A stretch of 22,306 bases of DNA, taken from Catajapyx aquilonaris (Eukaryota). The position numbers and the translations under genes were made by a program. The stretch lies in the NCBI GenBank assembly GCA_000934665.2, contig KZ538367.1:62001-84306 (forward strand), written 5' to 3'. Positions 193-19,392 of this stretch are shown in pieces; positions within the stretch are counted from its first letter, which is position 1, and every line of letters begins with the position of its first letter. The notes below the pieces were generated by a model. The model saw only the letters and a list, made by a program, of their open reading frames with translations. It ran no database searches and was not told the DNA's origin.

Positions 193-1080
193 ATGGCGTC
201 CCGTGGAGGATCCCGCCAGCATGTGGAGGCCCTGGTCAGGTGCGGGCTCAGGGCCTTCTCAGGGCTCGGGGCAGCAGGGCCGACACCACCAGGAGGGGCT
301 GGAGCAGGGCCTGCAGAGGAGGCTCCTGTCCCACCGCCCCACCTCCTGAAGGCGCTGATGGAGGCCGCTGGGAAGGTCAAGGCCGAGGACCTGGGTCTGT
401 CGGACAGGTACGTCAGGGACAGGTTCTACCCACCCGACGACGCCACAGCCGACGCCACCGCCAGCAGCACCACGTCGGCTGGCAGGAGGCGAAGCAGCAG
501 CGGGAGGGCCGCGCCTCCAATAGCACCAGCCGCCTACATTCCCATCTACGAGGACCAGCAGGTCTGTTCGCCGCATCTCCTTATTGTTCCTTCAATGCTT
601 CTCTCCCTGAACTCCGTGCTTGGGTATTCGCAGGTGACCATGGGGATATTCGTGCTGCGTGACGGCTGCAGCATCCCCCTCCACAACCACCCCAACATGA
701 CTGGGATCCTGAGGGTCCTCCTGGGGAGGGTGAGGATGCAGCCCTACAACCCCCTGCCCACCCGCGGGACCCCCTCCTCCACCCTCACGCTGGTTGTGCA
801 GCCGCCCGTGGACCTGGGCGCGGGGGATCTGCCAGTCCTCCTCACCCCGACCAGCGCCAACCTGCATGAGATCACCACCCAGGGAGACCACCCTGCCGCT
901 TTCCTGGACATACTGGGCCCTCCCTACAGCCCTGGCCAGGGACGGGACTGCACCTACTACACACCCATCTCACCCCCTGCGGAGGAGGAAGGGGGCCTCA
1001 CCACCCTCAGGGTCAGGCCAACCAACCCTCCAACCACCTTCTGGACGGAGCACTGGCCTTACGAGGGGCCTCCGCTCTAG
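193..1080 (+). CDS. ADO: 2-aminoethanethiol (cysteamine) dioxygenase, cupin thiol dioxygenase (ADO/PCO family); exons 193..561 and 634..1080, 271 aa after splicing
   Basis: ORF carries ADO-family motifs: YIPIYED..MGIFVL..G.SIPLHNHPNMTGILRVLLG (HxH iron ligands), LLTPTSANLHEI (third His), AAFLDILGPPY, RDCTYY and C-terminal YEGP. ATG is in a good context (caagATGG). Removing 562..633 (CAG|gtctgt...ttcgcag|GTG) restores the family spacing YEDQQ-VTMGIF. Confidence 0.93.
   Translation: MASRGGSRQHVEALVRCGLRAFSGLGAAGPTPPGGAGAGPAEEAPVPPPHLLKALMEAAGKVKAEDLGLSDRYVRDRFYPPDDATADATASSTTSAGRRRSSSGRAAPPIAPAAYIPIYEDQQVCSPHLLIVPSMLLSLNSVLGYSQVTMGIFVLRDGCSIPLHNHPNMTGILRVLLGRVRMQPYNPLPTRGTPSSTLTLVVQPPVDLGAGDLPVLLTPTSANLHEITTQGDHPAAFLDILGPPYSPGQGRDCTYYTPISPPAEEEGGLTTLRVRPTNPPTTFWTEHWPYEGPPL
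562..633 (+). other. 72-nt phase-0 GT-AG intron of ADO (in frame, stop-free)
   Basis: gtctgt donor, pyrimidine-rich body, cgcag acceptor. The 24 encoded residues interrupt a conserved cupin strand. Confidence 0.8.
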
Positions 1081-2277: not shown

Positions 2278-2418
2278 TCATCCAGAGATGGTGTCTGGGT
2301 CCTGGGGCGCATCCGGATCTTTGAAGTCGAGGATGCGTCTCTGGCATTGCCTCACGTACTGCTGCTGCTTGTGGTAGATCTTCAGCACACCCTTTATGCT
2401 TATGAAAGCCACTCCTCC
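2278..2418 (-). CDS. MARCHF5: MARCHF5 last coding exon (GGVAFISIKG...DTISG*)
   Basis: Acceptor ctcttccag|GGA on the minus strand; TGA stop at 2280..2278. Confidence 0.92.
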   Translation of the reverse strand, partial: GGVAFISIKGVLKIYHKQQQYVRQCQRRILDFKDPDAPQDPDTISG

Positions 2419-4891
2419 CTGGAAGAGCAGGGAAAGCACTTGTTTACTGACGGAGAAGCCTCGTACCAACAGGCTAAAACCCTTTACGAATCAAACGAGG
2501 CACGTGCGGATGATTTGCATGGGTATGTAGGTGTGTACTGACCAGTATGGCCCTCTGTAGATTGGATGGGACGGACTCGAAGAGCACCTTCCCAAAGAAG
2601 GTGGCGAGTGTCGGGAGGAGGAGGGCCCCGCAGAGCACCCTGGTGGCAGACATGGGGTCGGAGAGGGGTGGGAGGTCGGCTGGGTCAGGGACCGGGGGCA
2701 CCCTGTTGCCCTCCTCCCCTCCTTCCTCCTCGCTGGGCACTCCTCCCATCTCCTCCTCCCCTTGCCTTCCTCCAGCACTCCCTCCATTTTGGAACACGTG
2801 GCGGAGGCCGGGGATGTGCAGGGAGTGACTCCTCAAGAACCTGGAACCAAGTTTCGTTACAATGCAGCTGCCCAATTTGTCAACATAATTATGTGCACAA
2901 CTGGATGCCAATCACTGAATTACGACCATCACATCCATGTTTCATGGCCTGCAAGTACATTATTCCTTGGCCTTACCTGAGGAGGCAGTCCTCCCACCTG
3001 AGCATCTTGCCAAGCACAAGCGCAATGGGGATGGTGGGAAGGCCCACCAGGAGCAGCAGTGGGTCAGCCTGCTCCATAACGGCCAGTCCTTCCTTGTGTC
3101 CTACCACCTGCATTATGGTAACTGCTCCGTACGTAACGGCTGTCCAGTAGACGGAGCCAACCACTACTCCCGCCACCACAAAGGGGCACGCCTTGTACAC
3201 CATGGAATCGAGGGCGTCCAGCACAACCACCAGGGGACCCATGCGGGGGAACACTATCACATACTCCGTGTTGCACTGTGGGCAACGCACCGTCGCCGAT
3301 GGGTTGCCTTTCTGCTTCTCGTCCACCCAGCGCTGGATGCAGGATTGGTGGACCTGCACAGAGATACGACGCCACCCATCAGTAATCACGCACTTCTATT
3401 TTCGTACACTACAAACCCCAACAAATTAGGCAAACTCAGCAAATTCCCCATCAGATGAAAGCAAGACAATTTTTACACATGTTCATATGGTTTTCCATTC
3501 AAATTGTGACAAATATTGTGGAAAGAGCTACAAGAGACAGTGCATGTAAATATTGAGTGTGCACGTCCTTCACCCACTGACACGATTCCCGTACCAAAAC
3601 ACGCGCCATTCACCAAGAAAGTTTCATAACACCAGAACCAGTTCTCAAACGGTGTCAGAGGTTCCCTGCCCTTCCCCTCCCTCCTTTTAATTGCCCTCTC
3701 CATAAACTGTACATAAATCACGGGCAATTTAAAATCCCAACCGCTTTGCAAGCCAGCCACTGCAAATACCATGGCCTGCTGGCTCAATTAAAACGTGAAA
3801 GGTGCAGGCTGATGCCATAATCCAGCCATGTTGCAACACCCTCATTACGCAACCTTGCATTCCCTGCAATGTCATCCCCAAAGATGATTGCATTTTGCTG
3901 GCGAACCACTAAAAACATAACTGTTGCAATGAAATGCACAGCCACTTGAGAATAGGCAATGCAACATCACTTGTACGTTACATTCGTTGTCAACATAGAT
4001 ATGTAAATTGGAAAGGAGCTTTTCTTACAGTTTATTTAATTTATATATTTTGGCAACCCCGTGGTAGGGCAGAGCTTTTCTTACAGGTAAGGCCATGCAC
4101 CGAATGCGGATGAACAGGCGGTCACCTCAAACCTGTACTAGTCTAATCCAGGCCAACATAGGATAGGGCGAGTAGAGATACGCAAGCACCCCTCCACAAC
4201 TGACCCATTTAGTGGTTCCGCTACATCGGCATGGCTTGACCCAGGCGGCGAAGGGGTCGTCCTCGTCAGTGGCGAAGCAGACCCAGCAGTAGCGCCTGTC
4301 GTCGTCCTCGTCTGCCGTGGTGGTGGTGGGTGGTGGTGCGGCCAGTGCAGCCGCACTGGGGGCGGTGGGGAGTCCACTGGCCGCAAGGGCGGAGGGGGGC
4401 AGGTGGGGAGGGGAGGACCCTCCGCCGTCACTCCCCTGGTCTGTCCCTGGGTTCAACATGGGCGGCTGCGGACGGACACAAAGATTGTTAAGACCCACGG
4501 GTTCAGCTGGGATGTTCCGATGATGCCACTCAACCGTGTTACCTTCCTCATGCTTGCGGCACCAGCGAGTGTGTGTGTCTGTGATTATGTGTATGGGCCA
4601 GAGCGTGTGTGAGTGAGTGAGTGAGAGTAGAATGCTGCCGATTAGAGCGATATGTGTCGAGGTCAGTGTTACTACGTTCCAATCTGTTGTGTTGCTGCCT
4701 GCCTCTCCCGTACCCCCCTTTTGTGTCCCGTGGATCCCCTTTCCCTCCGAGGCCTGCCCTTCCCCTGGGCCTCCTCCTCCCCCGGCATTCTCCGTCCGTC
4801 CCCGTCCCTCCCTCGGCCGGCCCGGCCCCTCCCGAAGCCCTCCTTAAGCCCCAGAGCCAAGCGAGAGAACGACCCTTACCTTGCCCTCCAT
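2278..4891 (-). CDS. MARCHF5: E3 ubiquitin-protein ligase MARCHF5/MITOL (RING-CH plus four TM helices); complement(join(2278..2418,2543..2840,2977..3353,4205..4465,4880..4891)), about 362 aa
   Basis: RING-CH CWVCFATDEDD..AAWVKPCRCSGTTKW|VHQSCIQRWVDEKQKGN....RCPQC, followed by GSVYWTAVTYGAVTIMQVVGHKEGL, ADPLLLLVGLPTIPIALVLGKMLRWED, SATRVLCGALLLPTLAT and NLQRAIL|GGVAFISIKGVLKIYHKQQQY, all typical of MARCH5. Every junction is GT-AG with consistent phases (0,0,2,0). Total 1089 nt. Confidence 0.95.
2543..2840 (-). CDS. MARCHF5: MARCHF5 coding exon (FLRSHS...SATRVLCGALL...NLQRAIL)
   Basis: Acceptor ggttccag|G, donor CTG|gtcagt; contains the conserved TM3 motif. Confidence 0.9.
2977..3353 (-). CDS. 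MARCHF5: MARCHF5 coding exon (VHQSCIQRW...WEDCLLR)
   Basis: Acceptor ctctgtgcag|GTC, donor AG|gtaagg; second half of the RING-CH plus TM1-2. Confidence 0.95.
4205..4465 (-). CDS. MARCHF5: MARCHF5 coding exon (PPMLNPG...CWVC...GTTKW)
   Basis: Acceptor ccgtccgcag|CCG, donor TGG|gtcagt. Contains an internal in-frame ATG at 4459. Confidence 0.9.
4880..4891 (-). CDS. MARCHF5: Probable first coding micro-exon of MARCHF5 (MEGK)
   Basis: caagATGGAGGGCAAG|gtaagg: good Kozak context, strong donor, phase 0 in frame with the 4465 acceptor, and just downstream of the promoter motif cluster. Confidence 0.65.
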
Positions 4892-4939
4892 CTTGAATTT
4901 CTCCACCGGACACTCTCTTTTTTTTCCTCTCGTTTCCTC

Positions 4940-5200
4940 CATTTCATTGGCACCGCCCCTTTTCTGGTGACGTCACGGGATTGGGGGCGGGGTCTGCTCT
5001 CGTTCCAACCCTTCCGATTGGGCCGAGTTGCGATGGGCCAATCCAAGGGAAGGCCGGCCTGTGGGCGCATGCGTGTCGGTTGTTGTTGTTGTTGTTGTTT
5101 GCAGCTGGAATGTGTGAACTGAGTCGGCGGGATTTGCACCGCCATTTTTGATCAGGTCGAGGGAGAGCACGTGCCTGCGTCACAGCGCGCGCCTGGTTTG
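4940..5200 (-). promoter_or_regulatory. MARCHF5 proximal promoter (GC boxes, CCAAT boxes, CRE, NRF1/Ewg-like and YY1-like motifs)
   Basis: CpG-rich. GTGACGTCAC 4967..4976, GGGGCGGGG near 4984, ccgccc near 4953, several ATTGG/CCAAT, GCGCATGCG 5065..5073, CCGCCATTTT 5139..5148. Function is inferred from motif density and position. Confidence 0.55.
5079..5099. repeat. (GTT)7 microsatellite
   Basis: Directly visible. Confidence 0.9.
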
Positions 5201-6139
5201 AATTATTATAGAGTGTGCAGGTCGGGGGATACATGTCCGGGCGGAAAAAGGGCCATAGATTGTCATTATTTGCATTTTGATTGCTTCGGGCATGATCGAT
5301 GATGTAATGGGCGCTGAGTCGTAGGGTCACTGGATCGTTACAACTCATCGCAGCAGCTAGAGTATAACGTCATCTGACTGCTGGTCATCCGGAGGGGACG
5401 ACGAGGTTGTCTTCAGATTATGCCACTATCAGCCCCCTAATGATTTCAAGTGAATGACGACGGTGGAGCCCATATGCCCATATGACCGACTGGCTGCTTG
5501 TTCATCCGTCCCCATTAATTACCATTGAGATTACGGGTCTCTATTATTTTATCATTGCTTGGTTTGTTGTGTAGTACATGGGAGGATGGATATCTCCGCA
5601 TCACGTGAGTTTAGATCCGTGTGTTTGCCGGATGAGCCACTACTCTCCCCCAACCCTTCCCCTCTCCCTCCTTGCGCACTTGCAACGTGGTTATGAGGGG
5701 GAAGGAGGAAGGATAAGTGATGCAGCAATCAGATCAGCTGACCGTGTCTGTCGTAATTACGGTACTTCCCGGGTACTTCCTATTGCCCGCCACCCACCCA
5801 CTGCGCATGGGCACAGCAAAGCAAGCAGGGAAACACGCAGCTGCTCACCCACTGGTGCAAAAATAGTAGCGCCGCTACACGCTGCATGGCAATAAGCAGC
5901 TTGATAGAGCTACCACAAAGGCAAAGGGTACACGGAGTAAGTAGGTGCGCTGCGAATGGAATGGCCGAGACAACTGTATTCATTGAGCGGTGACCGAGCA
6001 TGACTGAATTGTGATGGAATGTGTCGGACAGCCTGAGGAATCCACGGGGAAACCTAATGTCGATCACGCTGCAGATGGAATAGCAGCTATCCCAAAGTAG
6101 CAGTTGGGGGGGCAGGAAGGGAGTCCATAATGGCTCCCC

Positions 6140-6315
6140 GTGTGTGGGCGGTGTGGATCCGGATTGGTCCAACAGGTCGGCCGCCCATTGGCTGCTGCTC
6201 CGGATCCATGGAGCATTTGCAGGACCCAACATGTCTTCCTCCCAATGTCGGCAGGGGGAGGGGGAGGGGTGCCGTCGTTCGATCCCGTGCGCATTCGGAC
6301 TCTCCCGCCCCTCCT
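6140..6315 (+). promoter_or_regulatory. Probable proximal promoter of the CPEB/orb2 gene
   Basis: GGGCGG/CCGCCC boxes (about 6146, 6181, 6305) and CCAAT/ATTGG boxes (about 6163, 6187, 6242). Followed by about 700 nt in which I see no ATG up to 6974, consistent with a 5' leader. Confidence 0.45.
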
Positions 6316-6343
6316 CTCCCCTCTCCCAAAATCCATCCCCCCT

Positions 6344-6345
<2 letters not shown>

Positions 6346-6379
<34 letters not shown>
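6346..6379. repeat. (AC)17 microsatellite
   Basis: Directly visible. Confidence 0.95.
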
Positions 6380-6381
<2 letters not shown>

Positions 6382-6973
6382 CCCCCCTCCCCTCCAGCCA
6401 GTCCTCCACCAACCAGCCTCTCCCTTCCTCCCTTCCTCCCTCCCTCCCTCCCGTGCTGGCTGCTCTCTTCCTGTACAGAGGAGAGAGGGAGAGGAGCAGC
6501 AGCACACAACACCAGCCCTGCCCCCCTTCTCGCTGCCTCTTGCCCTCCCTGCCTCCCAGTGTGGTGGTGGCCCCAGCAGAACACTCAAGAGGGAGCCCCC
6601 AGGAAGAAGGCAGGGCGGCCCCCACCCCCCTGCACACATCACAAGGAATACACACACGCACTGGTGGTGGGCCACGACTTCCATTCCCGTCCCCTCTCCT
6701 CTCCTCTCCTCTCTTTCCCTCTCTCTCCGCTCGGTCGGTCGACGACGACGACGAGAGAGACTATACGACACAGTTCGACACTGCAAAGAGAGGAGTTGGA
6801 GGGGAGGGAGGAGGGAGAGAGGGTCACACACCACCACATACATCACGTGTACATAGTCAGTACCCAGTTGTACCGGCAACACCACCACTCAACCGGACCC
6901 CCAGTGCTGGGCCCACTCGGGGGCAAGCAACGCATCACCCTCTGCCGCCGCCACCACACATCTGGTCATCGCC

Positions 6974-7432
6974 ATGACTGACTTCAAGTTCAGTGGATCT
7001 GGAGGAGCCGACTCGCTCTTCCTCTCGTTGCCCACCACCAACGAGGCTGGGTCGGGGGTCGGGTCGCCACAGCAGTCCAGCCCTCCCTCAGCCGGGGAGG
7101 ACGACCCCGCCTCCAACAACATGGGGCAGGACCAGGGAGGTGACCTCTCCGACCCTTCGCAGGGGAAGCAGCAGGTGGACGGGGACCCAGGACAGGACAA
7201 GCAGGCAGGGGACGGGGGAGCCTCCACGGGGGGAGCCTCCTCGCCATCCGTGCCCACTGTTCCCGTACAGGGACCTCCGGCCGGCCCTGCCTCCGCTGCA
7301 GCCTTCGACCCCAGTGCCGCACTGGGAGCCGGGCTCTGGTCTGCAGGTGCTGCAGACGACCCCGCAGGACTGCTCTACAACCTGGGGATGCCCACAGTCA
7401 ACGGAACGCTACCCTTCCAGAACTTCCCACCT
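6974..7432 (+). CDS. orb2: CPEB/orb2 first coding exon (153 aa, Ser/Gly/Pro-rich, MTDFKF...FQNFPP)
   Basis: cgccATGa start, donor CCT|gtgagt (phase 0), VNGTLPFQNF motif. Confidence 0.85.
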
Positions 7433-10400
7433 GTGAGTATCCCCTGTCTCTCGCTCGCTCGCCCTCCACTCCCTTAGCCAGTGCCACTGTCTGCTGCCCC
7501 CACGCCAGTCAACGCGACTTGTTGGACCCCCACTAGAGTGCCAGTGGCCTGCTTCAAGAGGTTCTGTACCAAAGTGTGGGGTAGCATTGCACCTGCTTGC
7601 TCCAATCTCCTGCCAGGACATGCATGGCTGCATTCTATGCATGCTTCTGTGACGCTTTTGGGGGACGTTAATGTCAGGCTTCACAGCAACAACGTTTGTT
7701 AACGTAGATCAGAAATGGACCCTTAGATTCTGGCTCGTGTTGCTTTGAGAGTGGTGTATTCACAGTGTGCCTCATTTTGGTAATTAGTAGAAAGCCGGGA
7801 TAGCTCGTGCTACAGACAGGGTTTGCAACACAAGTTGCAAGGCAGGTGTCTTATTACCCACTTCAAGACTTGCCTGGTCGGCCTACTGTTCCATGGTAAT
7901 TACTCTGATTACGGAGTCACTTTTTTTGTGTTCTCACATGCTGGGATATAGAGCACAATTGCATTCCGTACCGGTTTGGGACACTAGTGAATGATAATTT
8001 TCAGAACCTTGAACAACCTTGAACAGACAGACATGTCCACATGTGCTTTAGGAATTCCGTACAGAAAAATTCGCAGCATGGAGGTAGCCACTGCAGGAAT
8101 GTACAATCTCCCGTGCCAAAATGACGTACCAGTCGATACCATACACGACGATGAGGGTGGGGGCCTGCCTTGGTTTTTTTATGCGTTCAGTTGCCAAGCA
8201 GTGCCGACAGCTCTGTACATTTGCTTTGGTGTTGCATTGGCAGTTGGAAGAGGAGGGTTTGAGTCTCATCTGGACTTATCCCAGGTTAGGAAAATGAAAA
8301 ATAATGCAGGACTTGGCAGGCAGGGAGGGGGAATGTAATGATTTACCATTATATTGAGCTGTGAGTTAATAAATAATGAACTTCAAAAGAATACAGGCTT
8401 ATCTGGAGGTATCCCATTATTATTATTGTTATTATTGCAGTTCAAAAAGAGGTGTTGCTTGCTTTAAGGTGTTTCGAATGAATTTTCCCCGAACACTAAC
8501 ATGCACTCGCGCGCACAATATATTACGATCGAATTTTTTTTCGAACATGGCACCAGGTTTTGTAAGCGGCTGTCATTAGCCTCGTCTAATTTTAACAAAG
8601 CTTCGGTCATTATTAGAGGTAACTAAATGACCCCTGATAGAATTACAGTGAAACCTGGATATAGGTGGATATGCATATTAAACTTGATAAATTGGCCAAA
8701 CCTGGGGCAAAATTGGGCTTGGAGGCACGTGAGGACAACAGCCGCCTTCATTTGCGAAAAAGTGACAGCACATCCCATGTCCTCAGAGTTTAAGAAGTGG
8801 ACAGAGGTGGCAATGCTAATTCGGGTACATATTAACAAGGTGTAAATGAGATATTTCAAGTTACGGTATATGTAATTGCCTGATATAGTGGAAACTTGTC
8901 TGTCATGGAGATGTATGTCTGGATCTGCCAATTACCTACAAGTAGGTGGCATCTAGGAGGCACAAGCCTACCTCGAAATGACTGCCCCGCAGTGCGGCAC
9001 AGTACAATGGGACTTGCCTTAACGGCAGGTGGACTATTACTTTTGGGGGTATTAATAAAGCAGAGGGTAATTCCATTTTGCTTGGGCTTGTTTCCCCATG
9101 GAACATGATTTGATGCTTGTTTTGGAGTGTAGGGACAATAATTGCAAACACACAGCTGCTCTTGCTGGTTGCAAAATCTTGCAAATCCAGTGTAACATTG
9201 ATTGTTTGCAGCAATGGCAAATCAGTTTGTGCAATGCATGCGAAACCACCATGGAAATGATTAGGTACCGTAGGAGTGGAGATAGCTCTTTGTGTAGGTG
9301 ACAGTAAAATGATCCGATAAAAATTCCTTGGCGTTGGAGAGCATCAACGGAGATGCTACATCCAAACTACGTTACATCACAGGGATATTTTCCAAAAGAC
9401 TTAACCCTGTAATGCCCACTGGGTCATATCTGGCACACCATTTAGTGCAATTTTTGAAATTTTTATATTTCCTGTAAGTGCCAAATTGCACTAAATGGTG
9501 TGCCAGATATGACCCAAGGGGCATTACAGGGTTAAAAATTGCTCGCAGGAAGTCAGATGACTCCGTGCTTCAGAAACAACCAGCTGCCAAGTTGTACTGG
9601 TGCAGTATGCGAACCATGCTGAAAATTATGAATTTCGAATGTGTTGAATCTATGGTTCTCTATATATGCGGCATGTACACCTCTGAGCTGTAACTGGTGT
9701 CACCAAGGACAATGTGAGCCACAGTTGTGCAATCTCTACAGTCAGTGTTATCACACAAACCTGAATAAGGGTGAAATATCAGTGCCACTGACTACACGTA
9801 CTCAAGTGACCAGTGCTATTGGGTGGCAGCAGAAAGTTTTAGGCCATTTTATCCGATAACTCGAAGGGCCACATCGCGTTCTTGGAACTCTCCCTTTAGG
9901 TTTTTCTTTTAAAATCTATTTTAATCTAATTTAAATTTTTTTGTAATACCCTGTTATAGGGCCCCATTTAGGTATTTGTTATGGGCATCACCAGTACAGT
10001 GCTGGACGTTAATTCTGTCATACTGTTAGCGCCTTCTTCCGATGTGGCAGAAGTCCAAAGTGAATTGATGGAGTGCTGGTAAGAAATGGTAGGCCTTGGG
10101 TGACATCACCAGCTGGGGGCAATGACGAGAAAAGGGCTTGTCTACAGCCTGTGGCGTCACCCAAGGCCTACCATTTCTTATTCGTGCGGTTTGCGCTCCA
10201 TTGCACCTATGCCGCATCAGAAAATGTCGCTATCAGTACGAAGGAATTAATGTCCAGCACTGGACACCAACGCAATTGATGAAATCTTGAAACATTTTAA
10301 AATGTGTCAGGTGTGATTAGGTAGAGGCGTGGTTAATGGAGGTAGTGTATGTCACAGTTGACTCCACTCTCTGTCCATGTGCCTTTCCAATAACGATATT

Positions 10401-13124
10401 CAGAGGATGTTCTTCAGTGAAGTTAGTTGCTCTTATGTTTCAATTTCAGCCCCCTGGGTCTGGCAGCTTGTTCGGACAGACAAGCAGCTCAGTGCAACAG
10501 CAGCAGCCACCCCAGAGACGACCCATCACAGGCAACAACCACTTCCCCAACAACATCTCCAGGCAGCAGCAACAGCAGCAGCAACAACAGTCACTTTTCC
10601 TCCCGAGCAAATCTGGGTATTCCTCGTGGAGTGGAGGAAGCAACAGCAACAGTGTAGGGGGTGGTGGAGGGAGCGGCGGTTGGGGGGGAAGCTGCAACGT
10701 CACCCAGCCACAGTCTGCCCCCGTTGGAGGGGGTGGACCATGGGGGCGGACTGGAGGTAGAACCCCTGGTGGTGGAGTTGGGGGAAGTGCAAGCCCAGGG
10801 GCCGGGAGCGGGTTGGGAGGGCTTGGATCAGGGATGCTTGGAGGAAGGAAGCCCAACAGTGGAGGAGGAGGAGGGAGTCAGGCAGCTGCAGTGGCTGCTG
10901 CGGCAGCGGCGGCGGCAGCAGCAGCGGCTCTCAACCACCATCACCACCACCACCCTCATCATCATCCAGGAGGAGGGGGCGGAGGAGGAGGAGGAGGTGC
11001 GCACCACCAGCAGCACCACCCACACCACCCCCAGGCCCTCCACCCAGGGCACGCGGCAGCGGCTGCGGCTGCTGCGGCAGCTGCCCACCAAGGGATGCTG
11101 GTCTCTCCCTCAAAGTTCAGGCGATCCACCTCCTACCCGGGAAAGCAGCCCGCCTTTCACCCAGGGGCTGCTCCGCCACCAGCCTTTGAGGTCACTGCCA
11201 TAGATGACCTTGGGAGGGATGCGCTTCTCTCATACCAGGTCTGTCTCTCTTCTGTTGTTTTGCATGCAACCTTACTGGTGACAGCTGTTGCTTTGACTGA
11301 AATAGTATTGGCAGGTGTAATGCGCACATCTTGTGAGCACCAGAAGGCCTCGTTGACATTTTGTCGCGTTATTTAATTTCACTGGTGACAGGGAAGAAGT
11401 GGTTCAGCATTTGGAAATACACAGGGCATTCCAGTTGGAATGTTCATTTTAGTTCGTGTTTATTGTTTATTTTATTTTTGCACTAAGCTACTTGTTTTTG
11501 TTTTTTAATTTGCATCCTTTTAGTGTTTATCAAAAGTGCGCAGATTCCCCAGGGCTTGTGGCCTGCAAAAGAGTGGCATTTAATGCGAATTGTTCTAATG
11601 GGCTATTTTCAATTGGAAAGTCATTGCAGTTCAGAGCTTGGTTGGATTATTATTCAATTTGACCTGATTAGCTTATGCTCTAGATTTGTTCCAAGTAACG
11701 GCATAAAAACAAGCAGCATAGTGCCAAGCAGTTGCTAACTAAAGGGGTCATTTCAATAATTGGAATACCCTGTAGGTGTTAATTTGTTTCAAGGTCATCA
11801 TGTAGACTCATTTAATTAGGATGTTGGGGTTGCTTCCAAATTTTAAGGGGCAGTGGGCCATTCATTCAATGCGAGAAACATGGGTGACCTGGACGCTGAT
11901 TGACAGAGTAATTAAGATGGCTCCCAGTGAGGGTGCCACTAGAGACCAAACCCATTCCAATGGGCCACCACACATTATGTCAACACTAGCAGGTGGCTTC
12001 ATTGTTGCCTTGCTTTACTGCCCCAAAAAATCACGATGTATAGTCAGCAGGATAACGCTAGGAAATGAGACAATCTGCATAAATCTGTTTGACTCTGTCG
12101 TGAAAATTCTTGGTGTAAAGTGTGCAGAATGGCTTGAATGTAAAGAGATACCTACGATTGTGAAAAGGTGATAATCATGCATCGATGCAGGGGGTCAAAA
12201 TACCAAGATTTTTTTTTCTTTGTAACTTTCGTGGAGTGCAAGTGTTTGGAGGAATTTGATACAACATTAATTTTTGTAGCTATGGTAGCTGAAGCACAGT
12301 TCATAATAGATGTGCATTTGTTTTAGAAGGGACTAAACCAGATTAAACAATAAGTTTTGTATTATGCAAAGATGTCTGTTAAAACATTGGGCAAACTTGT
12401 GAATATCATTCGTGTAAATTTTTGTAAACGATATGCAACTAAAATATTGGCCCGACAGTTTCTAGATAAAATTAAATGTTTCGACCCCCTGCATCTTAGT
12501 TGATTGCCATTCTTGTGTCGTTTTCCTCTTTTTTCCACTCACACTGTTATGCAACTTTTCCACCAAAATCCTAAATGTGTCTGGAGCCAAATATAGTATC
12601 CTACAGATTTCCTGTCTTACTTGAGCATTCTTTTAACCGTGCTTGTCCAGAATTCCGAGTGCCAAGAAGTTAGTTTATATAAATTGTGCCAGGTGTGTTT
12701 GGCAGCTGTTTTGATGTTTGCGTCTAGAGGATTCAACCATGCGTCAGTTTTGGACAGAGCGTTACTGTAGTTATCCCTACCGGGTGTGCAGTATATATAT
12801 GAGCTTTGCACAAACATATCCTGGTGCTACCCAAATCCTCAGCACCCTATCAAGGTGAATATTTTTCCACGTTCCCAGCAGTTACCTTTCTAGCTTACAG
12901 ATAGTTTTATGGCGCCAGGATACAATATATTGTCAATAGCAGTTTATTTTTGACATTGAATGCTTCTCATGTAATTAATGTGGCACAACAAAGGCGTAGT
13001 TAAACAGGCATGGTTGACATTATTACCTAGCTCTTTCTGCTAGTTTTCCTGCATTAGTTTCAAGGGCAGTTGTATACACACGAGGATGCCAAAGGCAGTA
13101 GTGAAGCTAGAATCATGAAAAGTG

Positions 13125-13204
<80 letters not shown>

Positions 13205-16200
13205 ATGTCTGCAAAACTGCTACGACCATTATATGCACCTCCCAATCAGACAGCGAAGGCAAATGCGGCGGAAGGCAAGCCATGCATGTTATGGAAATAC
13301 AATGGGCGAGGGAGTGGGCCTTTATAAGTCTGGAGTACGATAGGGTCTCTGATGGAGAGTTGTGCAGCCCCTGGAGGGGGCCAGAGGGAGAGAAATGCGA
13401 AAATATTTGGCGAAACGCATGCTCCATCGTGCCATGTTGACGGGTTGCTGTGACCTGTAATGCGAAGGAGTGGACAAGTCGCCGCCTGTTGTTCCCAAAT
13501 AATTCACCGTGGACCGCACGTGCCTTTTCCCATTTTCTTACGAGGCTGACCGTCGTCGTGTTGAGTGGTCAGGAGCAGAGGTGTGAAGATGTCGAGGGTT
13601 GCGTCAATAAGGGAACACTGTATACGACTCCACAAAGCCCGGCCATTTATCGGTGTTTATAATTGAACTATTATAGGGTTGTCCGCTGGCGATATTTTTT
13701 AACTTTCCTCGAGCTTCCCATCTCAGACAAGAAAATTTGAACTCCCTTCCGGGATTTTTTTTTCTTTATTTTTTTTAAGAAACGTATTGTCTGAGAAAAC
13801 AGGAAAAGAAGACTCGTTTTGTTGTTGCGCCACCGCCGTCATATTTGGAAACCTTCTGAAGGATTGATAGGTGGAAGTTTTTTGAGCGACTCCTGAGGGA
13901 ACCTCTTGCAAGAATGCAGTTTCCAACATTTTTAGACATTCGTGGTCGATTTTACGAGGTCCAGACTTTCGATGCTAAAAGTGAGGTGAAAGCATGTCGA
14001 CTGGGGAAGTGGAAACTTGAATAATTATTGGAAAGAGGTTCCCTGAGTCTATATAGCTGTTATAATATGCAACCTTTCCATTACAATAATTATTTAATTA
14101 TTGTAATGGAAAGGTTGCATTTTAGTTTCCAATGTCAGGTGGGGACAGGTGGATATCGGGAGCGTTCTCAATATGATTTTTTATTTTAGTTATGTTACGG
14201 TAATGCTCAATCCAATGCTAGAGGTGCATACACTTAAATGCCCAAGTATTAGGGCTGTTGCTTAATCTCCTGTTGCATGTAGCAAATGATAACGCAATCG
14301 GATCTCTCCCCCCCCCCCCCCNNNNNNNNNNNTTGAAAGGATACACCCGGGCCTTATTTAACGTCAGTGAAAATTAGCCAGTGCTAAACCCTCATTATAA
14401 TGAAGCGCCACCGTTGGATGGAAAGGGACGGAAATGATTTTATTCACTTGTCACACGTTAATTTGAGAACGCCTAAAATCTGAGTTTGATTTGTATACTG
14501 AAAATGACGGGGGCAAATACGGAAAGTCAGAGCTCCGGCGGCCATCATCACACTCTGCTTGGACGTGGTTGTTATTAGTATTTATGGAGCATCTTCTCCT
14601 GAGTCGAGTGCTTCTGGACATGAAATGTTGACGACGCGTGCAGCAGCATCAGTACTACTTACGCAACCTTATTCACGTGTGTCTTTAAAATATTTATTCT
14701 CCCGCCGGCAGTCCCGTAGTGGTTTATGGCTGCTCTCGAGGTGTTTGGTCCTCAGACTCTTGCTTATGCAGCAGGGTGCAGTCCAATTATTTTTTGGGAA
14801 TATTGCATGCCCCACTCGATGGCTGCCCCCGCACAGGACATGTCTCCAAGAGAATGAATGAATGGGCAGTGATTCTGCTTTCCCAAGTCGGACTGCAACT
14901 TCCTTCCTCTAATAGGAGAAGTTCCTCAATAATTTTGGGATGGTCGCAGAGGAGTAGTTGTTGTAGTGGGCCTGCTATACAGTTGTGGGGTTGGGAGTTG
15001 CATCAGCAGAAGCCCTGGTGTGTATATGTACAGTAGGTGTGGGGGTACTGGTATATAGAGGGGAGAGGGATGTGCGGATGCATATTGTAACAGGTGCGCA
15101 TGATGATGATGATGATAATGCAGGGCGGTCGGGCAGTGTTGCCGTACCATGTACGACGTCACCCGATGCATGCCGTGTGTAGGCAATAGATCTCGTCGCA
15201 TTCTGAGCCAGCTCCTTCCCACCCTCCCGCCCTCCTCCTCTCTCTTATCCCAAAGTGCCCAGACCTTGACTCGTATAATCTGCCAAACTGCGTCGTTCAT
15301 CACTTATGTATTTCTTCTCTCTCTCTCCCCCCCCCCCCCCNNNNNNNNNNNNNNNNNNNNNNNNNNNNNNNNNNNNNNNNNNNNNNNNNNNNNNNNNNNN
15401 NNNNNNNNNNNNNNNNNNNNNNNNNNNNNNNNNNNNNNNNNNNNNNNNNNATCCATGCTGGATTATGGCCCCGTACATCTCCCGTGTGTATGCGCTGGAA
15501 ATGCGATATTTAATGCCGGCGGACGCCCACTGTAACCAAAGTGGTCTGTGAGGGACGGATGGATGGATGGATAGAGAGGGCGGGGGCGTTTGCAGGGGCC
15601 GGCTGGCTGCAAGGGAGGCAGGCCAGATCCAGGGTACATACTGTAGGGGTATAGAGAGGGAGGCGAATGGGGGTAACCCAATATGCAAGCTGCCTGCTCT
15701 CTCTCTCTCTCGGGTATCCTACCTGTCCTTGCAAAAAAAAAAGGGGGGGGGGGAGGCTGGACAGCTATTTTCGATACACTATTCTTGTCATGCCTGGAAA
15801 TAATAACATTCACGCCTCCAGACCATCTTCACACGTGCTGCCTTTGAATGGGGGGGAGTGGGGGGAAGGCGCGAACGTAGACCTCCCATGTATGTACAGT
15901 AATCATGCTGCTAGTTCAAGTTGGAAGCGAGAATACCCCGTGGAGACAGACACATGGCCGGTGCATTATACGAGCCAATTGCACGCGGATCAAGCAGTAG
16001 GTGCCAGTACTTCTATACTTGTGTTTCCTTGGCTGCCTCTCAGGGACGTGTCCCACACACTCGCTCGCACACACTGCTCTGTATGTGCTACTAGCGATAC
16101 TCGCGTGTGAGATTAACAGCGGGCGGAATATTATTATGTTAAAAATAAAAAGGACAACCCTGCTGGGGTTGTAACGCGTATTTGACGGGCACTTTTTCGG

Positions 16201-19200
16201 ATTTGTATGGAAGTTGTGCTGGAGCGAGTTTCTCCAGCGGATGGATCGATCTTTTCGCTACCGGGGTGAGAGGGAGGTAGAGGAGGGAGGGGAAGGGGGT
16301 AGCCCTGGAATATCCGGGATACATACCACTCCCACTCACGACCGTATGTACACCCTCCCTCACTCTGCCTTCAGGGGACGGAAAAAAACCCGGTTCAATG
16401 CTGGCAAATAAAATGTCTAGAAATGTAACTGGAGAGACCACCGTCACCCCCTCCGCTTTGACCGGCTTCGACATGTGGGTAGGGTTTTTTTTTCTTCTTC
16501 TTCTTCTTTCTGGCGGGTGGGTCGGTCAGTCGGCCATTACTACAGCACACTGCACATGTACAGGAACCAACCACCGATGTGCTACCTGTTCAGAAAAAGT
16601 TTCAGGCGAATTTTTCCAGCATCAGCACTGGGCTCCCTGGGCTGTGGAGGTGAGGCAGGGAAAAGACACCACCATCTGAGTGATGATGGTTGCATAGCTC
16701 CAGGAGGAGAAACTTTTCTTTCTTTCTTTTTCGCCAGCTGGTATAGGCCTACTTCTAAGAATGGTTGCATGCGGGCAGGAATCGTGATGTGTTGTGTGGA
16801 TTGATGGGCCTGTGTCGTCAGCCAGATAGGCCGAGCACCACGTAACCCAGCAGTCTGAGCCAGCCCGTGTCGATCGGCCGATTATTCCAGTCGATTGCGC
16901 TCCCATGTAACACTCGCTGCAGGTTTTATATAGCCGGCCCCTGCCAACGTCAATATCTGGATGCCACATGTGCCGGGCAACGCTCGTGTGTTTTTGCACC
17001 TCAACCAGCTCAACGGATGCTGCTACTTGGGGACTGAAGGAAAAGCCTGGAATATCCAGTCAGTTGCCCAGCGGCCCTAACACCTTATTGGCAAATAAAA
17101 ATGAACCGTGCAATTCTCAGCAAGGTGGAAGTTTGAGGCTTTATTTGAAGTATAGTCAGACTGATATCATGGCTTTTGTGCAGAGGATGACACGATTCTG
17201 CATAATGGTCGGTTTTCATCCTGCGAGTTGGGCCGCCGGGGCAAGCAGGGGAGGGCATTGGGTGGCCGTGAACAGCCAGGATGAAGAGGGGGGCTCCCCG
17301 GCTCTTCTCTAGATCATTGCGTGCTGGAGTTCCCAAAAGAGGCAGAAGAAGGTCGATTAGTAATCTGGTCCACTTCCTTTTCTGGAATCTGATGGGCAGG
17401 ATTCCCCTCCCTGGATGCTGCTGTCTTTCCCAGCCTGCTGCATGCATTCTGTGGAGAAAACAAAACGGATGGGAGAGCTCTTTTTTTATTTTTTAAAAAA
17501 TGGGGGGGTTCCGGGCGAGGCAGAGTTTTTCTCTGTTCCGGGTTCTCTCGCTGCTTCCCTGCCTAGCTGGCTGGATAGGTTGGTTGGCTGGTTGGCTGGT
17601 TATATGGTGGTGGCCTCTCTCTCCATCCTCCCCTCCCCTCCCTCCCTCCCTCCTCTCTCCAGGCAGTGAAGGGATCCAGTGCTGCTGCTGCCTGGAAAAT
17701 CAATGCTGGCAGCAGCTGGAGAATTCCAGGGCCGTACATGTGTGTGACCCACATTCTGCCTGGAAAATGGGAGCGGGACTCGATGCTATATTGATGGGTA
17801 CCCCCTGTATATGCACACGATGATTATTATCATTGAACCGATAGTGTGCATGTATATATAGAGGAAGTGATTGGTACAGAGAGTAGTAATAATAAAAAGG
17901 GTTGTGCTTGTGCCGAATGAAGTTGACCTTGTGTGACCTCCTCCCCAGCAGGATCGAGGTCTGGGCCCGTCGAACGGCACTAGTCCACTGGACAGCATGC
18001 GCAGCCTGGAACTGTACCTGAACGACATCATGAGGGGGGCCGCCGAGCCGCAGGACCAGCTCAAAGGTAGGGTTCATGCCATGCCCTCTCCTCGTCGACA
18101 TGCCATGCACGAATATGTACTTGGCGTGCTGGTTGAAAGGGTAGGGTGTCAAGTTGGGTGGGAAGGGGGTGAGGCGGCAGGTGGGGAGCACGGCCACACA
18201 CACACACACACTGTATGTGCTGCGTGAGGGTTCCGTCACAGGACTAGTGCAGGGGGCAAATGCTGAGGGATCAATGAATTGGGTAGGGGGGAGGGGGTCA
18301 GTCTGCATGGTTGGGACCCATCCAGATCCCACTATACCCATAGTTCTATACTAATACATAAGTCCATATAACATACCTGCAAATGTGGAGTGACCAATCG
18401 AATCGGCGCAATGACCGACAAAATTGCCGAAATCCAGTCGAATGGTAACAACACCCGTCACACCGGAGCGGGGACCACCGACAGTCAAGAGTTGCCCTTT
18501 TCCCAAATGAAATTATCCCAGGGGATTACTGCAACATTCGCATCAGACTTATTACACATCCTAACAAGCGAACAAAAACTGATACCTAAATCGTGGGCGT
18601 AATCGAGGAATAGTTTCAGGTTTGAACAGATCACGAGATTTGCTTAATTTTTTTGTGATGATTGGTGCTGATGTAATAACAAGAGGGAAGGGAAGATGCA
18701 ACAAAATGTTATATGCTTACATTGGGATAAAGCTTATTTCAACCGAATATGTTGATTTGGGAGATGTTTTTGATGACTCAAAACATCGCAGGGGCAACGA
18801 GTCAAAAACAGATCACGCGCGCAATAAATCAGATTCGTGAGCGAACTGTTACGAACTCATTTCACGTGCGTTTACTATCAAGCATAATATGAGGAAACAA
18901 GATGATATTGGCGCCTTCATGATGCCTGTAATGCGAATAGTTTCAGACAAGTTAATTAAGCTCACGGGCACCGTCTTAAAACTGTGACGCGGCTTATTTG
19001 ATCGGATACTCCAGAAATGCTGAATGGAAGAAGGGCGGAGGTAATTGATGTAGAGTGTAGCCTATACATTCTGGTGTGCGCATCGTTATTGTTGGGATGC
19101 CCCCTTCCAAACTAGCATCGAATGTACACTATATATAGGGAGAGCCAGTGACTGTTATAGTTCTGACTGTTGATATTTCGCTCCTGCTCCTCTCTGCCTC

Positions 19201-19392
19201 TTTTCTAAACTAGTGGACTTGTTATTGTTAACTGCCCAGTTCAATAATTTGGGTCGAAATGTGTAACGAGCTTGGGCGTGTAAGAGTGATTGGCATTGGG
19301 TTTGACTTGTGCTCTAGATATCTCTATGCTTATATTTCCAGGTTTCCTGAACTGCAACACGAACGCTCTGCACTCTCTCGCCCAGCTACACG
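6974..19392 (+). CDS. orb2: Cytoplasmic polyadenylation element-binding protein, CPEB2/3/4 (Orb2) subfamily; partial, 3' exons beyond the window. join(6974..7432,10450..11238,17949..18066,19342..19392)
   Basis: Motifs recalled from the CPEB2-4/Orb2 N-terminal region: VNGTLPFQNFP, QRRPITGNNHFP, SKFRRSTSYP, and SMRSLELYLNDIMR...LKG (vertebrate MHSLExSLIDIMRAExDxxKG). Q/H/A/G-rich domain. Splice sites are phase-consistent GT-AG. No RRMs are visible, so the call rests on N-terminal motifs and gene context. Confidence 0.85.
9405..9531. mobile_element. 127-bp piggyBac-type MITE with 49-bp TIRs and TTAA target-site duplication
   Basis: TTAA at 9401..9404 and 9532..9535. Termini are CCC...GGG. Arms 9405..9453 and 9483..9531 are reverse complements with 2 mismatches. 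Confidence 0.85.
10080..10180. repeat. About 100-bp fold-back element (30-bp arms with 2 mismatches, plus further internal pairing); possible TA-flanked MITE
   Basis: taagaaatggtaggccttgggtgacatcac versus the reverse complement of gtggcgtcacccaaggcctaccatttctta. Confidence 0.75.
10450..11238 (+). CDS. orb2: CPEB/orb2 second coding exon (263 aa, low-complexity prion-like Q/G/A/H region)
   Basis: Acceptor tcaatttcag|CCC, donor CAG|gtctgt, phase 0/0. Contains QRRPITG and KFRRSTSYP motifs. Confidence 0.88.
12188..12491. mobile_element. Candidate non-autonomous hAT-like element/MITE, about 304 bp
   Basis: Termini CAGGGGGTCAAAA and TTTCGACCCCCTG (1 mismatch; the inverted match extends to 17 bp at 12184/12495). 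AT-rich non-coding interior. The putative 8-bp TSD is poor (catcgatg vs catcttag). Confidence 0.5.
13125..13202. repeat. (ATT)26 microsatellite
   Basis: Directly visible; explains the poly-Ile and poly-Asn ORFs. Confidence 0.95.
14067..14120. repeat. Perfect palindrome, 26-bp arms with a 2-nt spacer
   Basis: atgcaacctttccattacaataatta-tt-taattattgtaatggaaaggttgcat. Confidence 0.9.
14322..14332. other. Assembly gap (N run)
   Basis: Ns following a poly-C run. Confidence 1.
15341..15450. other. Assembly gap (N run)
   Basis: Ns following a poly-C run. Confidence 1.
17949..18066 (+). CDS. orb2: CPEB/orb2 third coding exon ((Q)DRGLGPSNGTSPLDSMRSLELYLNDIMRGAAEPQDQLK-G)
   Basis: Acceptor ctcctccccag|cag|GAT (NAGNAG), donor AAAG|gtaggg (phase 1). 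Conserved MxSLExxLxDIMR motif. Confidence 0.87.
19342..19392 (+). CDS. orb2: CPEB/orb2 51-nt symmetric (phase 1/1) exon, GFLNCNTNALHSLAQLH
   Basis: Acceptor tatatttccag|GT, donor CACG|gtgagt; open in the frame set by the previous exon. Confidence 0.75.

Follow-up and report, generated by a model that had tools for sequence, protein, structure and literature searches.

We analysed the final 22.3 kb of contig C656 (hereafter the window, meaning this whole stretch of DNA) in the 286-Mb assembly of Catajapyx aquilonaris, which comprises 20,583 contigs. Our results revealed that MARCHF5 and orb2, a gene of the CPEB2/3/4 family, are arranged head-to-head in the window: MARCHF5 (minus strand, modelled ATG 4891) and orb2 (plus strand, ATG 6974) diverge, with 2082 bases (2.08 kb) from ATG to ATG. 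The same pair recurs in vertebrates, molluscs, a nemertean, chelicerates and a stony coral, and it represents a compact, orientation-stable gene order, in place since before Bilateria, that joins the gene of an RNA-binding protein with a developmental role to that of a mitochondrial ligase of housekeeping type. The evidence for a conserved ancestral microsyntenic pair came directly from DNA in Catajapyx and the coral, from published papers in vertebrates, and from an accession proxy in chelicerates and molluscs.

The head-to-head pair in Catajapyx aquilonaris

The window carries three genes: an ADO-family gene (plus strand), MARCHF5 (minus strand) and the 5' part of the CPEB gene (plus strand). 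Splice joints were taken from X1, the single available sequencing run, whose kind is not on record and whose assembled contigs are unstranded and unable to show transcription starts. In X1 contigs, CPEB intron 1 and the ADO intron were spliced out as in our models, and so were introns 3 and 4 of MARCHF5. The exons of the pair were as follows.

4880..4891, minus strand: MARCHF5 coding exon 1 (12 nt, ATG 4891), modelled from a GT donor, an AG acceptor and the open frame
4205..4465, minus strand: MARCHF5 exon 2, first half of the RING-variant domain (Pfam RINGv, E=3e-6)
2977..3353, minus strand: MARCHF5 exon 3 (homology; spliced X1 contig)
2543..2840, minus strand: MARCHF5 exon 4 (both flanking splice joints in X1 contigs)
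2278..2418, minus strand: MARCHF5 exon 5 to the stop (X1 contig; transcribed sequence reaches at least 1523)
6974..7432, plus strand: orb2/CPEB2-3-4 coding exon 1, ATG 6974 (N-terminal profile E=7e-9; X1 joint to 10450)
10450..11238, plus strand: orb2 exon 2, low-complexity Q/G/A/H region with the KFRRSTSYP motif (profile E=2e-26; X1)
17949..18066, plus strand: orb2 exon 3, MRSLE motif (profile E=2e-11; an X1 loose end at 11238 reads into 17949)
19342..19392, plus strand: orb2 exon 4 (match to damselfly Orb2 residues 386-405)
C2391 28339-23738, minus strand: orb2 continuation with RRM1, RRM2 and ZZ (damselfly Orb2 mapping, phase)

MARCHF5 was modelled as five minus-strand exons with a coding span of 2.6 kb, encoding 362 amino acids without a stop; all four introns were GT-AG and measured 124-851 bases. 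Introns 1 and 2 were absent among the joints listed for X1, so ATG 4891 and the 12-nt first exon remain a model, and an alternative in-frame ATG occurs at 4459. As expected of a MARCHF5 orthologue, an N-terminal RING-variant domain was followed by the conserved membrane region and the best matches were MARCHF5; exon 3 shared 70-80% identity with the 120 homologues listed, mostly named MARCHF5, and the genome held one copy. A quick tree, in which two out-of-frame rows (L049, L055) were ignored and support was given by the Shimodaira-Hasegawa-like approximate likelihood ratio test (SH-aLRT), placed the protein in a pancrustacean clade (99), outside the clade of named winged insects (94). Its 362 amino acids compare with 273-291 in molluscs, coral and fish, and lineage-specific low-complexity insertions were observed as an acidic/Gly loop in exon 4 (2543-2840) and a Pro/Ala N-terminus (4205-4465).

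The CPEB gene has four plus-strand coding exons in the window, from 6974 to 19392, and the rest lies on another contig; the window is devoid of RRMs because contig C656 ends where the window ends. Its introns are large (3.0, 6.7, 1.3 and over 7 kb), and an X1 contig covered 6742-6950 of its 5' untranslated region (UTR). Family searches found two CPEB RRM/ZZ loci in the genome, on C2391 and C3102. Damselfly Orb2 residues 102-390 mapped to the window contig and residues 548-827 to C2391 (77-98% identity). The C3102 locus (C3102:21801-22689) was just 37-52% identical to damselfly Orb2 and was therefore taken as the second, CPEB1/orb-like gene. The leading C2391 exon is 4.4 kb from the contig end, no N-terminal exon was found on C2391, and the window and C2391 frames join in phase 1 to give 809 amino acids with no internal stop. 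Judging from collinearity, phase and single copy, the window exons and C2391 are one single-copy orb2 gene, with the cross-contig junction as modelled. The two RRMs and the ZZ finger on C2391 are of the CPEB2 type, distinct from CPEB1, and an RRM exon of 131 amino acids was 100% identical to several insect proteins. An N-terminal profile of CPEB2-4, made from 38 N-termini with the window and the coral locus L040 (see below) excluded, was searched against 6217 six-frame pieces; the four window exons and two coral exons (in L040 and its duplicate L041) were the sole matches at E<0.1. A quick CPEB tree (SH-aLRT) again gave a pancrustacean clade (99), within which the protein grouped with insects (94), and both trees would fit a non-winged hexapod. 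Exon 2 (10450-11238) contains long Gln, Gly, Ala and His runs, with a composition unlike the other Orb2 proteins in the tree, and is a candidate prion-like region.

The original prediction, made from the letters of the window, had named the plus-strand gene as CPEB2/3/4 (orb2), and damselfly Orb2 mapping, the tree and the N-terminal profile all agreed. The pancrustacean placement of both proteins identified the DNA as arthropod and not vertebrate. The same prediction had described the two genes as divergent across about 2.1 kb without a credible gene between them. Our gene models confirmed this: of the 7 ATG-started open reading frames (ORFs) of at least 60 amino acids between the two ATGs, none reached the Pfam cut-off, and the stretch contains no N run. 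X1 coverage ended at 4931 and resumed near 6690-6742 at low depth; it was nil at 4941-6460, which is uninformative on transcription there. A single low-depth X1 contig stopped matching at 4931 and continued for 255 foreign letters that are absent from the window and lack a splice acceptor; this loose end may be a chimera or an unseen upstream MARCHF5 exon.

Distribution of the pair among animals

The chance that a given named gene is the divergent neighbour of another was estimated at about 1 in 10^4 per lineage, assuming 15,000-20,000 genes. In human, 76 bp separate the divergently transcribed CPEB3 and MARCH5 (PMC2871058, supplementary file 6), and the start sites of mouse Cpeb3 and March5 are 73 bp apart (PMC6336207), so the adjacency and divergence of the human genes, as stated in the original prediction, are borne out by published start sites. 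PMC2871058 covered 64 eukaryotes and recorded the pair in only 7 of them, all vertebrates. Furthermore, 'CPEB3=MARCH5' was filed as ancient pair 264 in genomic regulatory block (GRB) 92, with CPEB3 as the linked ohnologue and CPEB2 and CPEB4 unlinked (Touceda-Suárez et al., 2020; PMC7530604 Table S1), in line with the earlier suggestion that CPEB3 is the vertebrate paralogue that kept the ancestral neighbour. The entry records the pair in 2 of at most 8 non-vertebrate species, with Irimia 2012 as its source, and gives a human distance of 47.9 kb for one representative transcript. Set against the 76 bp above, this distance suggests two starts of CPEB3, one close to MARCH5 and the other distal.

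That table thus already catalogues both the ancient pair and the special status of CPEB3. The main text of Irimia 2012 (PMC3514665) does not name CPEB, and the supplements of PMC5429095 (12 of 16 files) and PMC5560861 (12 files) held no CPEB or MARCH5 entry. Literature searches, with most subscription papers outside their coverage, found no study devoted to the orb2/CPEB-MARCHF5 pair and no paper on fish MARCH5B synteny. Apparently new here are the instances in a coral, in molluscs and a nemertean and, among arthropods, in chelicerates and a hexapod-like animal, together with the orientation in two invertebrates, the apparent loss in winged insects, the parallel with spider duplication, and the argument against the regulatory-block label.

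Linkage in other invertebrates was read by proxy: an equal scaffold length of the homologues was taken as the same scaffold and accession order as roughly positional, and orientation is not given by this method. Both genes were on one scaffold in 8 of the 10 chelicerate species with both listed, and in all 10 lophotrochozoans.

Limulus: XP_013775566/567, consecutive accessions, same scaffold
Tachypleus: XP_076367821-824 and 828-832, same scaffold
Trichonephila inaurata: GFY50958/59, same scaffold
Trichonephila clavata: GFQ83184/85, same scaffold
Nephila pilipes: GFT27788-89 and 93, same scaffold
Argiope: KAF8767399/401, same scaffold
Larinioides: CAL1273473-74/75, same scaffold
Caerostris darwini: same scaffold, from equal scaffold length only
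Haliotis rufescens, Argopecten, Mizuhopecten: same scaffold, consecutive accession numbers
Two Patella species: same scaffold, accession numbers 2-6 apart
H. asinina, Lineus, Ylistrum: same scaffold, accession numbers about 20-50 apart
H. cracherodii, Pecten: same chromosome only

The two chelicerate misses were Trichonephila clavipes and Araneus ventricosus, in which the CPEB copy listed was on a different scaffold; the list, which gave 15 of 21 members, lacked the second paralogue. In four of the linked spiders a second CPEB paralogue was present on a separate scaffold. After duplication the neighbour is kept beside one CPEB copy, that is, CPEB3 in human and one of the two paralogues in spiders. 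In the springtail Allacma the genes were on different short contigs of a fragmented assembly, and hemichordate MARCH5 and amphioxus CPEB were each found without the partner's accession. In total, the pair shared a scaffold in 18 other invertebrate species and was found by direct sequence in a coral.

In a scan of metagenome contigs, 80 of 175 MARCH5 loci were kept, and 13 of them had at least 2.5 kb of upstream sequence. In the locus L040, and in L041, which duplicates it almost exactly, MARCH5 lies on the plus strand. The transcript contig L025 joins the first MARCH5 exon (4589-4702, ATG 4667) to about 10001, which gives a first intron of 5.3 kb. L040 was assigned to a stony coral because the L025 protein is identical to Orbicella faveolata MARCH5 and the L025 DNA is 96% identical to L040. 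Two minus-strand CPEB exons start from 3169 (profile E=2e-6 and 1e-7), 1.5 kb from ATG to ATG. The first of them matched a Xenia CPEB4-like protein (E=1.6e-13 among 289 sequences), and 26 of its first 29 bases agreed, by eye, with the Nematostella CPEB2 forward primer in PMC10284499. Two CPEB intron positions, with their phases, are common to the coral and the window gene. The coral pair is head-to-head, and therefore the pair, which the original prediction had traced possibly to the bilaterian ancestor, is older than Bilateria. A tblastn search of the 80 loci with 120 arthropod-dominated CPEB proteins gave no match at E<=0.01 and therefore missed the coral exons that phmmer and the profile search later found; the ESM Atlas returned for the coral exon a single match at 0.76, which was uninformative. 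We also observed a sharp step of the CpG observed/expected ratio (o/e) in L040:1-11113, from 0.76-1.36 over CPEB and the promoter to 0.0-0.5 over the MARCH5 body. Such a step would be expected if gene-body methylation affected the housekeeping gene only.

Promoter-like motifs between the two genes

Two clusters of promoter-like motifs were found between the ATGs of the window pair.

4945..5148, no strand: P1, promoter-like cluster with CCAAT at 4945, 4979, 5016 and 5038, CRE at 4968, GC box at 4985, NRF-1 at 5065 and YY1 at 5141
6162..6310, no strand: P2, weaker cluster and candidate proximal orb2 promoter, with three CCAAT and a GC box (4 matches in 6100-6399)

P1 comprised 8 motif matches in 4900-5199, as compared with a shuffle mean of 0.6, and none of 2000 shuffles reached 8. 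Its bin ranked first among the 174 bins of 300 bp over 52 kb (7 matches, next best 3), and the CpG o/e peaked beside it at 0.96 (5001-5500). Human divergent promoters are reportedly enriched in five motif types, Nrf-1, CCAAT, YY1, Sp1 and GABP (PMC2077898), and P1 carries four of these, GABP being absent. In the coral L040, ETS, CCAAT and YY1 motifs at 4502-4564 immediately precede the first exon of MARCH5, with two CCAAT boxes 400 bases closer to CPEB.

Why the pair has persisted

From the arrangement of the sequence, we give an even chance to the explanation that the pair persists through interlocked divergent 5' ends in one short CpG-rich promoter region. P1, which adjoins MARCHF5 and has motifs of housekeeping type (NF-Y, NRF-1, Sp1, CRE, YY1), would drive MARCHF5 and also feed orb2 in one of two ways: it could provide an upstream start from which a non-coding first exon is transcribed, or it could act from nearby to activate P2, 1.1 kb off. 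Any break would have to hit a gap of only 1-2 kb and would be likely to impair the expression of one gene, so that separation would be rare and mildly costly. Such a constraint would be escapable: it was seemingly broken in winged insects, and a single CPEB copy stayed linked after genome duplication. The coupling would be architectural and would not require a shared pathway.

Several observations support interlocking. The orientation was head-to-head wherever it was readable (the window, coral L040/L041, mouse and human), as in bidirectional promoter pairs, and the gap was short in all of them (2.08 kb in Catajapyx, 1.5 kb in the coral, 73-76 bp between the mammal start sites). The 3' side of MARCHF5 is not conserved, with ADO in Catajapyx versus an Ide-linked locus in mouse, where March5 and Cpeb3 are described as upstream of Ide. 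The motif types found in P1 and beside the coral MARCH5 first exon are also in favour, as is the correlation of the two mouse genes in lens (r=0.998 over 8 samples). Among ancient pairs in general, 5'-5' pairs were the commonest and the most orientation-stable (Irimia 2012; PMC3514665). MARCHF5 is tiny in Catajapyx, which suggests promoter interlocking rather than an enhancer-bystander block.

However, a number of results weigh against interlocking. The genes were on separate scaffolds in all eight winged insects (Odontomachus, Microplitis, Diachasmimorpha, Ooceraea, Laodelphax, Diorhabda, Cryptotermes, Coptotermes), although two assemblies may underlie the Ooceraea records, only a partial CPEB was listed for Coptotermes, and several scaffolds measure just 0.4-4 Mb; winged insects have apparently lost the pair. 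In the barnacle Pollicipes the listed copies were on different chromosomes. The other 11 of the 13 metagenome loci with at least 2.5 kb upstream showed no CPEB exon upstream; several are duplicates or too short to reach past intron 1, one coral locus ends inside intron 1, and L076, L084 and L085 have other genes directly upstream. The chelicerate and mollusc pairs are known by the scaffold proxy, which is silent on orientation. No significant intergenic similarity was detected between Catajapyx and the coral (best E=0.38). The promoter case in the invertebrates comes from motifs, and the motif list was picked post hoc, after the sequence had been seen. P1 and P2 are 1.1 kb apart, which is equally compatible with two independent promoters. 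In mouse, the correlation of r=0.998 over 8 lens samples represents one epithelium-versus-fibre contrast, in which Cpeb3 changed up to 17-fold and March5 less than 3-fold (PMC6336207); passive spill-over would also yield such a correlation, and both genes were largely unchanged in another mouse study.

A stronger form of the interlocking explanation is conceivable and, in our judgement, unlikely. P1 would then be a true bidirectional promoter that pre-dates the cnidarian-bilaterian split, equivalent to the 73-76-bp mammalian one, launching an unannotated non-coding orb2 first exon and co-inducing MARCHF5 at CPEB-dependent differentiation (lens fibres, germ cells, neurons), with winged insects having rewired orb2 to its own promoter. 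If this were true, winged insects would be a natural experiment on dissolving such a promoter.

Neutral persistence is a possible but doubtful alternative: the genes would simply be ancestral neighbours, each with its own promoter (P1, P2), the gap a small target for breakpoints and the co-expression spill-over. The separate motif clusters and the unconserved intergenic sequence are in its favour, and so is the separation seen in winged insects and in fast-evolving metagenome lineages, which matches the finding that the loss of ancient pairs tracks general rearrangement rates (Irimia 2012; PMC3514665). However, the 3' junction of MARCHF5 is equally tight, with an ADO transcript overlapping or abutting its own, and this junction is not shared with mouse, whereas the 5'-5' junction has lasted in four phyla and the coral. 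MARCH5 and CPEB also stayed close despite intron growth, as in the coral with its 5.3-kb first intron.

It is rather improbable that the pair is a genomic regulatory block, in which CPEB enhancers would lie inside introns of a bystander MARCHF5. This is how it is filed in PMC7530604 (GRB 92, pair 264), and the retention of the link by one of three human ohnologues is the usual fate of a GRB according to that study; the 5.3-kb coral intron could also be counted for it. However, the filing derives from a Gene Ontology (GO) label and not from an enhancer test. The bystander in Catajapyx has introns of 124-851 bases, not long ones (barring a further 5' non-coding exon), and it is orb2 itself that has the large introns, of 1.3 to over 7 kb. 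In the coral, the CpG-depleted MARCH5 body (o/e 0.0-0.5) presumably marks a housekeeping-like gene.

The original prediction had also linked synaptic translation with mitochondrial quality control through this pair. Functional coupling of that kind, in which selection for co-expression would act because the translation programmes driven by CPEB in neurons, germ cells and differentiating cells call for simultaneous remodelling of mitochondria through MARCHF5, is very improbable. It draws on the co-induction in mouse lens and on the age of the pair only. Our literature searches found no paper tying the two genes functionally, the GO similarity score of CPEB3-MARCH5 was 0 (PMC2871058), and CPEB2, CPEB4 and insect orb2 work without a MARCHF5 neighbour. 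The proposed link was unsupported; the pair is seemingly broken in winged insects, to which Drosophila belongs, the animal in which the memory role of Orb2 is best known. The pair alone says nothing on synapses or mitochondria. Finally, convergence with the vertebrate adjacency or an assembly mis-join has practically no chance. The fragmentation of the assembly (20,583 contigs) and the split of orb2 between contigs speak for it, but the stretch from ATG to ATG is free of N runs, the coral shares two CPEB intron positions with their phases, and the distribution of the pair, found on one scaffold in 18 other invertebrates and by direct sequence in the coral, already refuted it.

Interlocked 5' ends thus remain the explanation that we favour. 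Whatever the cause, the apparent loss in winged insects and the one-copy retention after the vertebrate and spider duplications offer dated contrasts, and the pair can be used as a synteny marker for CPEB2-subfamily orthology.

Neighbouring genes and other features of the window

One further gene of the window is a tail-to-tail neighbour of MARCHF5 and outside the conserved pair.

193..1080, plus strand: ADO (cysteamine dioxygenase family), intron 562-633 spliced in X1, Pfam PCO_ADO E=6e-33

The ADO transcript has a spliced 3' UTR intron (1111-1525) and then runs on toward MARCHF5, while the MARCHF5 X1 contig extends down to 1523. Unspliced X1 cover at 1215-1552 is as expected if these 3' UTRs overlap in antisense. 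Arms of 29 bases at 1093-1121 and 1772-1800, between the two genes, are 86% complementary. Upstream on C656 (42001-62000) the genes are tightly packed: a cytoplasmic dynein heavy chain (plus strand), recognised from ORFs, a gene with ubiquitin-like and NIF phosphatase domains (UBLCP1-like, plus strand), and a histidine phosphatase gene (minus strand) that is head-to-head with ADO. Human ADO maps to 10q, on the chromosome that carries CPEB3, and UBLCP1 to 5q, on that of CPEB4; this match would fit one ancestral linkage group.

The introns of orb2 contain several inverted repeats. A miniature inverted-repeat element of 135 bases (9401-9535) has 53-base arms and TTAA flanks and starts with CCCT, in the manner of piggyBac-type ends. 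All 40 scored candidates (of 214) match it at 92-100%, so the family is young. Other hairpin-forming inverted repeats at 9994-10265 and 14063-14124, with weak Rfam miRNA matches below the gathering scores, are probably other small transposon relics. In an Rfam scan of the window, none of the 23 matches reached the gathering score, and neither a hepatitis delta virus (HDV)-like nor a CPEB3 ribozyme was found. The top-scoring hairpin of the window was rejected as an RNA element, as it belongs to a repeated element.

Comparison with known systems

Drosophila orb2, known for its memory role (PMC10284499), belongs to the CPEB2 subfamily, of which the Catajapyx gene is a regular single-copy member. 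In contrast to Catajapyx, the winged insects examined have orb2 without a MARCHF5 neighbour, which for Drosophila itself is based only on its absence from the PMC2871058 row. The HSPE1-HSPD1 pair (Irimia 2012) is similar in being a 5'-5' pair of unrelated genes with a short gap and loss in some fast-evolving lineages. However, its members are partners with a demonstrated bidirectional promoter, whereas orb2 and MARCHF5 are not known to share a function, and our literature searches met with no promoter test of their pair. The mammalian CPEB3-MARCHF5 pair, with its putative bidirectional promoter (PMC2871058, PMC6336207), has the same head-to-head arrangement and a short gap; the mammal start sites are 73-76 bp apart, while the Catajapyx ATGs are 2.08 kb apart with two candidate promoters between them. 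The CPEB3=MARCH5 entry of Touceda-Suárez et al. (2020; PMC7530604) concerns the same two orthologous families in adjacent position. That study treats the pair as an enhancer-bystander block, whereas we read the Catajapyx pair as perhaps held together by interlocked promoters.

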